A DNA stretch of 9,360 bases, taken from IMG/VR virus record IMGVR_UViG_2695420847_000014, one strand, 5' to 3'. The notes below the pieces were generated by a model. That model did not search any database. It saw only the letters and a program-made list of their open reading frames with translations, and was not told where the DNA came from. The position numbers and the translations under genes were made by a program. This DNA comes from a virus (taxonomy: Duplodnaviria > Heunggongvirae > Uroviricota > Caudoviricetes). This document shows, one piece after another, positions 6,094 through 6,708 of the stretch (position 1 is the first letter of the stretch; every line of letters starts with the position of its first letter).

Positions 6094-6514
6094 GCCATTA
6101 CAAAAGCCACTCCCTACAGAGTGGCTTTGATAATGGCTTATACCCTACACGGGATAGCTTAACTGATATCCCTTTTAACGGATAAAGGTATTCAAGCCTG
6201 ACACATCATGCGCTGTATCGTCGCCGTATTCCCGTATTAACAGAGACCGTAGCCCGACGGGGAACTCCTTCTGCGCGAGTGTGCGGGAATAATCAAAAAC
6301 GATGCACACCGGGTTTTTACCGCGTTTATGGTTCGCGGGTTTGTCCCTCATGCTCGCCAGTCCTGTGCGGGGGTGGAAGAAACAGGACACTTACACAGAT
6401 TCTTGTGGGCACGATGCTATGCCTTTCTGGATTATCCCGATGCCATTCATGCAAGGCGTTGTATCAGACGTTCGTCAGAGCTGTCAGGCTGACGGGTCCT
6501 CCCGGTGGGGTGGC

Positions 6515-6545
6515 CTGCCACGGGGCGGGAGCGTCGCGGAAAAAG
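6515..6545. other. cosN-like cohesive-end site (terminase nicking site), with cosB-like region downstream
   Basis: ACG-GGGCGGGAGCGT-CGCGGA resembles lambda cosN (ACG-GGGCGGCGACCT-CGCGGG) with 4 of 12 mismatches in the presumed cohesive 12-mer. It lies ~185 bp upstream of the small-terminase start, the same spacing as lambda cosN to Nu1. The lambda sequence is recalled from memory. Confidence 0.5.
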
Positions 6546-6708
6546 GCTAGTTTTTGAAATTTCATTCGTCATCACCACCACTATAATAGATTGATATTAC
6601 AGTGGTTTTATTTTTATGGTGTCGATTTTGATTGTTTTTTGTTCATCACTAACACCGTTTGCCTAAAGTTGTTCGCGAGATGCATGTTTAAAACATTCTG
6701 GAGCGGGT

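Follow-up and report, generated by a model that had tools for sequence, protein, structure and literature searches.

A probable lambda-type cos site with a common overhang allele in an mEp460/cdtI/Ayreon-type prophage of Escherichia coli

The 9,360-bp stretch of prophage DNA analysed here (hereafter, the window) contains a sequence that resembles the cohesive-end site of phage lambda and differs from it in the presumed overhang. The question is whether this sequence is a cos site and, if so, whether the differences would confer a cohesive-end specificity distinct from that of lambda. Our answer, which we hold with considerable confidence, is that positions 6494–6708 are the cos site (cosQ, cosN, and cosB) of a lambdoid E. 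coli prophage of the mEp460/cdtI/Ayreon type, that functional members of this family would use it by a lambda-style mechanism, that the overhang allele is widespread, and that this particular copy is probably not self-packaging. In kind, the feature is already known: it is an ordinary lambda-type cos site, and the family of E. coli prophages that carries it is very common.

The cos signature and its surroundings

The gene content of the window identifies it as the late region of a lambdoid prophage. Its 5' part carries a DUF968 gene, a RusA-like resolvase, a Q antiterminator, two tRNAs, and one sRNA; its middle part carries two open reading frames with a TolA C-terminal domain, an S21-type holin, a lysozyme, and Rz; and its 3' part consists of about 600 bp of largely non-coding DNA, a 164-residue open reading frame (6709–7203), and the gene for a gpA-family large terminase (7203–9254). 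The window as a whole is present in none of 5,426 complete E. coli genomes, the best match having 91% coverage at 95.7% identity, which is consistent with a rearranged mosaic. A scan of 5850–6800 for promoters and terminators gave counts no higher than in shuffles. The open reading frame at 6302–6550, which spans the cos site, is unlikely to be a real gene because, in the alignment, homology among relatives breaks just upstream of the cosQ heptamer.

This heptamer, GGGTCCT (6494–6500, + strand), is identical to that at lambda 48473–48479, where it acts as a packaging-termination signal. It lies 22 bp from the presumed top-strand nick compared to 23 bp in lambda, and 22 bp is the usual spacing for the non-lambda alleles among the matches listed in the IMG/VR scan described below. 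The earlier note, which was based on a reading of the DNA alone, did not mention the heptamer. The cosN element (6521–6536, no strand assigned) consists of a presumed cohesive-end segment of 12 bp, GGGCGGGAGCGT (6523–6534), with CG on each side (6521–6522 and 6535–6536), in the lambda-like context ...CCACG|GGGCGGGAGCGT|CGCGG.... Thus, the heptamer, the left half of the 12-mer (GGGCGG, 6523–6528), both flanking CG dinucleotides, and the 12-bp spacing between the flanks are identical to those of lambda, and the signature as such is a matter of direct observation. The earlier note had counted four differences in the twelve overhang positions, and a comparison with the lambda reference (NC_001416) gives the same figure: 8 of 12 positions match, and the differences are at positions 7, 8, 9, and 11, all of them in the right half (GGGCGGGAGCGT versus GGGCGGCGACCT). 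The window 12-mer has 10 G or C in 12, and both its GC content and its predicted duplex stability equal those of the lambda 12-mer; the rotational symmetry of the 16-bp cosN is 8 of 16 bp here versus 10 of 16 in lambda.

The composite pattern GGGTCCT-N20-CGGGGCGG-N6-CG has a single instance in the window, also when two mismatches are allowed, and none in 200 dinucleotide-preserving shuffles. With cosQ, cosN, and the flanking CG all present next to a gpA-family large terminase, the proposal in the earlier note of a lambda-like cos region is well founded. Two other classes of packaging site were considered and rejected. One is the cos of a PICI or satellite, and here terS and terL, rather than an rpp-type gene, lie directly 3' of cos, and the lysis cassette (holin, lysozyme, and Rz) lies 5' of it. 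The other is headful (pac) packaging, and here the large terminase is of the gpA type and the cosQ/cosN signature is complete.

Conservation of the site and geometry of the cut

IMG/VR was scanned with the pattern cosQ...CCGGTG...CGGGGCGG, in which the right half of the 12-mer was left free; the matches listed are dominated by E. coli isolates, so the frequencies are indicative only. Among these matches are 122 lambda-type sites with 15 right-half alleles, of which GGGCGGGAGCGT is the commonest (54 sites), followed by GGGCGGGAGCGG (22), that of lambda (21), and GGGCGGCAGCGG (10). The 3' CG flank, which was not imposed by the pattern, is kept in 121 of the 122 listed sites. Over the 56 distinct listed sites, the entropy is 0.8–1.25 bits at bp 7–12 (bp 1 being position 6523) and at most 0.37 bits at bp 13–17, which were likewise not imposed by the search. 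The variable block coincides exactly with the right half of the 12-bp segment between the conserved nick flanks, and this conservation pattern is directly observed.

Deposited genome ends are also informative. The GenBank records of phages cdtI (AB285204/NC_009514) and Tritos (OV696610) both open at the base equivalent to 6523 and finish with ...CCACG, these deposited ends having been either measured or set by analogy. Both records start with GGGCGGGAGCGTCGCGGAAAAAGGCTAGTTTTT, that is, with the 12-mer and the next 21 bases, as in the lambda convention. That two deposited genomes open exactly at GGGCGGGAGCGT is a direct observation and, together with the retention of the 3' CG in the sites listed, supports the cohesive-end packaging that the earlier note had proposed.

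Other phages are closer still. In mEp460, Ayreon, phi458, and vB_EcoS-569R4, the cos region is 96–98%, TerS 99–100%, and terL about 98–99% identical to those of the window, and their cos/terminase module is the same as that of the window, except that their terL is intact whereas that of the window is truncated by an insertion sequence. Their records open at terS or in prophage order, which has left cos unannotated, and for Ayreon cos packaging was only predicted by its authors. The mEp460_4F5 assembly starts 5 nt upstream of cosN, and in it a deletion of 3 nt spans the presumed site of the bottom-strand nick.

The cos/terS-start region is matched in 2,119 of the 5,426 complete E. coli genomes, at least 80% of the region being covered in 1,465 of these, and there are up to seven copies of the module in one genome. 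Species-representative genomes were scanned with the 19-mer CGGGGCGGGAGCGTCGCGG, a pattern that is too short and GC-rich for that collection: nearly all of the 92 matches are chance ones in high-GC genomes, and those in a real cos context come only from E. coli, E. ruysiae, and two MAG contigs, which are probably mis-binned. Among the papers that could be searched, none prints GGGCGGGAGCGT; searches for it on either strand, and for similar alleles, led only to unrelated work on eukaryotes or G-quadruplexes. The allele is a known, widespread one that is normal for its family and not a rarity.

Differences of this kind are not peculiar to this family. Those at cosN bp 7–12 are common in lambda-like phages, N15 and phiD326 differing from lambda at positions 9 and 12, and Gifsy-1 at 8, 9, and 11 (PMC4669245), while the cosN of mEp213/LLS has been assigned, by inference, as GGGCGGCGCGCT (PMC12315714; also a record feature). 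In all of these, as in the window, the differences are confined to bp 7–12 and cosQ and the nick-flanking CG are kept; the window allele differs from them in that position 7 is also changed.

By analogy with lambda, we infer nicks between 6522 and 6523 on the top strand and between 6534 and 6535 on the bottom strand, with the polarity that gives 5' overhangs. A very improbable alternative is that the site is cut but without a 12-nt 5' overhang, the nick spacing being different or shifted. A precedent might be seen in the cyanophage Cr-LKS3, for which 5'-extended cohesive ends with a 9-nt overhang, GGGCTCGCG, and a lambda-like start and flanks have been reported (PMC9303873). Its TerS is of the DUF1441 type, like that of the window (37–40% identity), and the first four overhang bases and the flanks resemble those of lambda; it differs in the length of the overhang, in its unrelated host, and in its high-GC genome. 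Moreover, VT1-Sakai and Gifsy-2 have 11 and 14 bp between their conserved flanks, and such relatives show that the length of the overhang varies within the wider family. In the window, however, exactly 12 bp separate the two flanking CG dinucleotides, as in lambda and in 121 of the 122 sites listed, and the variable block coincides with bp 7–12. Furthermore, the depositors of cdtI and Tritos chose the first G of GGGCGG as base 1, and the record of the Hafnia phage yong2 begins at bp 13 and closes with a 12-mer.

The small terminase, cosB, and packaging specificity

The small terminase gene, terS (6709–7203, + strand), encodes a protein of 164 residues that belongs to Pfam DUF1441 (141 bits) and to phrog_141, which is annotated as "terminase small subunit"; it has a putative N-terminal helix-turn-helix (at about residues 7–30) and is 100% identical to the TerS of Ayreon, phi458, and vB_EcoS-569R4. 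The earlier note had described the gene as Nu1-like, which is right as regards remote homology and wrong as regards Pfam membership. The Phage_Nu1 profile (PF07471) gave no match to this TerS even at E ≤ 1, and BLASTP against Nu1 gave E = 20. The PHROG profiles are nevertheless reciprocal, the window TerS matching phrog_57, the Nu1 family, at 8e-10, and Nu1 matching phrog_141 at 6e-8, while hhalign aligned the DUF1441 and Nu1 families over 140 columns (79% probability, E = 1.5e-5), placing residues 7–30 on the helix-turn-helix of Nu1. These profile comparisons suggest that the window TerS is a remote homologue of Nu1. A profile search of the PDB gave only a marginal helix-turn-helix match (E = 0.16), and a single-sequence AlphaFold model (mean pLDDT of 66, with the N-terminal domain below 70) was too poor for a comparison of folds.

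Between cosN and terS, the resemblance to lambda is partly in sequence and partly in layout. The ATG of terS at 6709 corresponds to bp 187, compared to bp 191 for lambda Nu1, in keeping with the lambda-like spacing noted previously. The cosN-proximal spacer, CGCGGAAAAAGGCTAGTTTTT (6535–6555, + strand; bp 13–33), with phased A and T tracts, is identical in cdtI and Tritos and conserved across all DUF1441-TerS subtypes. Over bp 13–40, 18 of 28 positions (64%) are identical to lambda; beyond bp 40, the ungapped identity is 39 of 160 (about 24%), which is the chance level. The earlier note had held that the A/T-rich tracts, including a string found at 6551–6576 (TTTTTGAAATTTCATTCGTCATCACC), mirror lambda cosB: this is true of the bp 13–40 spacer and of the general layout but not of the sequence of cosB proper.

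Within cosB, three sequences match TCRWCACY, and these are the only matches in the whole window, although the motif was defined after viewing the sequence, so that its clustering is no independent test. They are an R3-like candidate, TCATCACC (6569–6576, + strand; bp 47–54), within TCGTCATCACCACCAC; an inverted R2-like candidate (6618–6625, − strand; bp 96–103), which reads GGTGTCGA on the + strand, i.e., TCGACACC; and an R1-like candidate, TCATCACT (6643–6650, + strand; bp 121–128). Their direct/inverted/direct order is that of R3, R2, and R1 in lambda, and the R3-like candidate is at a position comparable to that of R3 in lambda (bp 50–65) and N15 (bp 48–59/60) (PMC9026076, PMC4669245). A 30-nt direct repeat (6552–6581 and 6626–6655) holds the R3-like and R1-like candidates. 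Between the R3-like and R2-like candidates is a sequence that fits the IHF consensus, TATCAATCTATTA (6584–6596, − strand; bp 62–74), analogous to I1 of lambda; WATCAANNNNTTR has this one exact match in the 9,360 bp, and a 12-nt inverted repeat (6577–6588 and 6595–6606) encloses the site. The best IHF match in lambda cosB, with one mismatch, is on the same strand and farther along, at bp 79–91; in general, the cosB elements of the window lie closer to cosN than those of lambda.

Related phages share part of this arrangement. The TCATCAYCAYCA element (bp 44–58) is at an equal distance from cosN in mEp213/LLS, VT1-Sakai, and yong2, and a TTGAT-like core (TTGAA or TTGTT in two subtypes) occurs at about bp 69–73 in all DUF1441 subtypes, including that of cdtI, where GGCGGCGGCAAC replaces TCATCAYCAYCA and the TTGAT core is kept. 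At the R2-like position, relatives have (A/G)TGTCGA, which, paired with the R1-like element, gives a perfect inverted repeat in the subtype designated L120, and relatives of other DUF1441 subtypes have, 3' of the TTGAT-like core, a TGTCGA element followed by a TTCRWCAY element. We infer from this layout, analogous to that of lambda, that the cosB motifs are candidate TerS and IHF sites.

A mechanism modelled on that of lambda would then be as follows. The DUF1441 TerS would bind the short direct/inverted/direct motifs of cosB around a site bent by IHF and, once bound, would position the gpA-family large subunit; this subunit would nick the two strands 12 bp apart to produce 5'-GGGCGGGAGCGT cohesive ends, and cosQ would bring packaging to an end at the following cos. 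All four departures from the lambda 12-mer fall in its tolerant right half and represent a widespread allele, typical of this terminase clade, rather than a new packaging specificity.

It is on this last point that the earlier note is not supported, since it had suggested that, if the phage were active, the allele would give it a distinct cohesive-end specificity. Such a reading, in which the four substitutions cause the terminase to recognise this cosN and not that of lambda, and vice versa, seems to us quite improbable. It can call on a strict association among the matches listed: all 54 copies of GGGCGGGAGCGT are beside a TerL of the mEp460/cdtI clade or a DUF1441 TerS, or have no detectable gene beside them, and all 21 copies of the lambda allele are with a lambda-clade TerL and Nu1. 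Linkage and shared descent would, however, be expected to produce this association anyway. It can also be argued that the C-to-G change at position 7 disrupts the symmetric pair G6:C7 at the centre of lambda cosN and that mismatches at 4 of 12 positions would hinder annealing to a lambda end, a 2-bp mismatch already cutting the yield about fourfold (PMC4669245). [quoted passage not shown]

The distribution of the alleles points the same way. Among the matches listed, GGGCGGGAGCGT occurs upstream of two TerS/cosB subtypes, that of the window (MDRELKNL..., ATG at bp 187) and that of cdtI (MELLMSNV..., ATG at bp 185), while the window TerS/cosB type is found with at least five alleles (GGGCGGGAGCGT, ...GAGCGG, ...CAGCGG, ...GAGCAT, and ...CGGACG), and ...GAGCGG and ...CAGCGG occur in both the lambda and the mEp460 TerL clades. 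Since the same allele is found with two TerS/cosB types and one type with at least five alleles, GGGCGGGAGCGT does not define packaging specificity, which should depend on cosB and TerS. The sole certain consequence of the allele is that ends of the GGGCGGGAGCGT type and lambda ends would not pair properly. A weaker reading of the strict association between allele and TerL clade is that the nuclease is co-adapted with bp 7–12, contrary to the "neutral right half" rule derived from lambda.

In cdtI and Tritos, TerS is also DUF1441, but it represents a divergent subtype with 42% identity to the window protein, and cosB after bp 33 is another module, with GGCGGCGGCAAC at the R3 position; theirs is probably a different packaging specificity with the same cosN as the window. 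A tentative proposal, which we consider possible though rather unlikely, is that the DUF1441-TerS phages are a set of uncharacterised packaging-specificity groups that have in common one TerL clade, one cosN allele, and one position of IHF, and that differ in a short R element at bp 44–58, with matching changes in the recognition helix. The R element, which resembles a trinucleotide repeat, is TCATCAYCAYCA in the mEp460, mEp213, and VT1-Sakai types versus GGCGGCGGCAAC in the cdtI type, and the putative TerS recognition helix is HRQTAAAR versus HRDTVKKR. If this were so, the module would constitute a natural swap experiment on how Nu1-like winged-helix TerS proteins read DNA.

The interrupted large terminase gene and the meaning of the site

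The membership of the large terminase in its family is established directly by Pfam: the product of terL (7203–9254, + strand), which has the ATPase and endonuclease of the gpA family and is truncated at its C-terminus, matches GpA_ATPase (PF05876) at 242 bits (8e-72) and GpA_nuclease (PF20454) at 288 bits (1e-85). A gpA-family TerL is thus shared with lambda, even though its identity is only 25% to lambda gpA versus 87% to the TerL of cdtI, and although TerS is DUF1441 here and Phage_Nu1 in lambda.

The truncation is due to an insertion sequence. All homology of terL to phages and to E. coli ends at 9237, and the final five codons and the stop are derived from the element, the left end of which (9238–9360, + strand) is inserted in terL, starts with GTAACCGG..., and includes the start of tnpA; the junction is read directly from the DNA. 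Positions 9238–9360 are 100% identical to a multicopy element found on chromosomes and plasmids in 1,744 of the 5,426 E. coli genomes and annotated as an IS66-like TnpA, an ISCro1-family transposase. The GTAA... start of the element is typical of the ends of the IS66 family. Intact TerL homologues have 700 residues and end in ...KKQKRKKTVTDDVNPWLTSGGWL, whereas the open reading frame in the window has 683 and ends in ...PVKSNRLI*; the last 22 residues (...PVKKQKRKKTVTDDVNPWLTSGGWL), which are invariant in 26 intact copies, have been replaced by five encoded by the element. The complete C-terminal, portal-docking end of TerL is, therefore, absent from the window. It is through its C-terminal part that lambda gpA docks on the portal (PMC9026076).

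Because the IS66-family insertion has removed this invariant tail of 22 residues, the present copy of the prophage probably cannot package itself, and the proviso "if active" in the earlier note becomes doubtful for this copy, terL being truncated. Any use of its cos, which is itself intact, would have to be in trans, through a co-resident terminase of matching type. It might be objected that the site is just a relic, that is, that the prophage is defective, that its cos is never cut even in trans, and that the site owes its preservation solely to the recent date of the insertion. To this we give a serious but minority share of our belief. The insertion at 9237/9238 with its loss of an invariant tail favours it, as does the finding that none of the complete genomes contains the whole window, the partial best match being what a rearranged mosaic might give. 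Yet cos and terS are intact, as is terL over its first 678 codons, and all are 98–100% identical to their counterparts in plaque-forming phages; with as many as seven cos/terS modules in one E. coli genome, an intact co-resident terminase that shares this TerS type could cut the site; and the remainder of the prophage falls beyond the window. We continue to regard the region as a cos site of the family, in a copy that is probably not self-packaging.

For biology at large, these results are of little importance, and their value lies mainly in annotation. In a widespread prophage family, lambda-style cohesive-end packaging is supported, and the "variant" overhang turns out to be the normal allele of the family, the only trait particular to this copy being the insertion in terL. 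In practice, this prophage should be flagged as probably packaging-defective, with an insertion sequence in terL; records of mEp460/Ayreon-type genomes could be made to start from the equivalent of position 6523; and the DUF1441 genes adjoining such cos sites can be named as small terminase subunits. Finally, the candidate elements of cosB may offer a modest start for studies of how TerS recognises DNA.

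Genes between Q and the holin gene

Downstream of Q, the window carries a tRNA with anticodon CAT (2238-2313), which is assigned to methionine by ARAGORN but is given as tRNA-Ile in the annotation of a related E. coli genome, a tRNA-Arg(TCT) (2417-2493), and a region that matches the STnc100 sRNA family over the full length (3190-3380, 110 bits). The TolA C-terminal domain (Pfam PF06519; phrog_5772) was found in two paralogous ORFs (3491-3919 and 4070-4465), and this pair lies between Q and the holin gene, an interval that is a position for cargo genes in lambdoid phages.

An ORF and an inverted repeat at the cos site

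An 82-aa ORF (6302-6550, plus strand), which matches phrog_17397 with E = 1e-47, spans both cosQ and cosN and would be split in virion DNA. Among relatives, homology breaks off just upstream of cosQ. The ORF is probably a gene-caller artefact that is maintained through the conservation of cos. Within cosB, the core of the candidate IHF site is flanked by a 12-nt inverted repeat (6577-6606; ACCACTATAATA / TATTACAGTGGT) with 92% complementarity. In close relatives, the repeat is perfect over 9 bp; no equivalent is present in the other TerS subtypes.

Interrupted terL genes and paired cos sites

The terL gene of the window is interrupted 22 codons short of its end by an IS66-family element with an ISCro1-family transposase; the window includes the left end of this element (9238-9360; junction 9237/9238). 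An identical truncated TerL tail, ...PVKSNRLI, occurs in L093, an IMG/VR prophage locus with a cdtI-type TerS, and this identity suggests that a second lineage carries the insertion at the same site. In E. coli strain 120899 (L227), another terL is interrupted by the same IS at a different position.

Two complete cosQ/cosN sites, around 2.5 kb apart, were found in three viral contigs: L100 (7639 and 10175), L012 (8231 and 10767), and L128 (6511 and 9048). The downstream site precedes the phage's own terS. The cosB of the upstream site is of the cdtI type; what follows this site is not terS but a 68-69-aa ORF (VSCINDLNTGDIRGG...), and this upstream cos with its ORF may be a small hitch-hiker module within prophages.

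Presumed cohesive ends in relatives

The record of mEp460_4F5 (LR595868; L002, 1-30), a virion-derived assembly, opens 5 nt ahead of cosN and lacks 3 nt (TCG) across the presumed bottom-strand nick, GGGCGGGAGCG^CGG, an apparent artefact of assembly at physical cohesive ends. Upstream of terS in two prophages with a DUF1441-type TerS, Gifsy-2 (L129) and VT1-Sakai (L131), the distance between the two conserved flanks, ...CACG and CGCGG..., is 14 bp and 11 bp, respectively, rather than 12 bp. This spacing suggests that the length or sequence of the overhang may not be uniform across the wider family.
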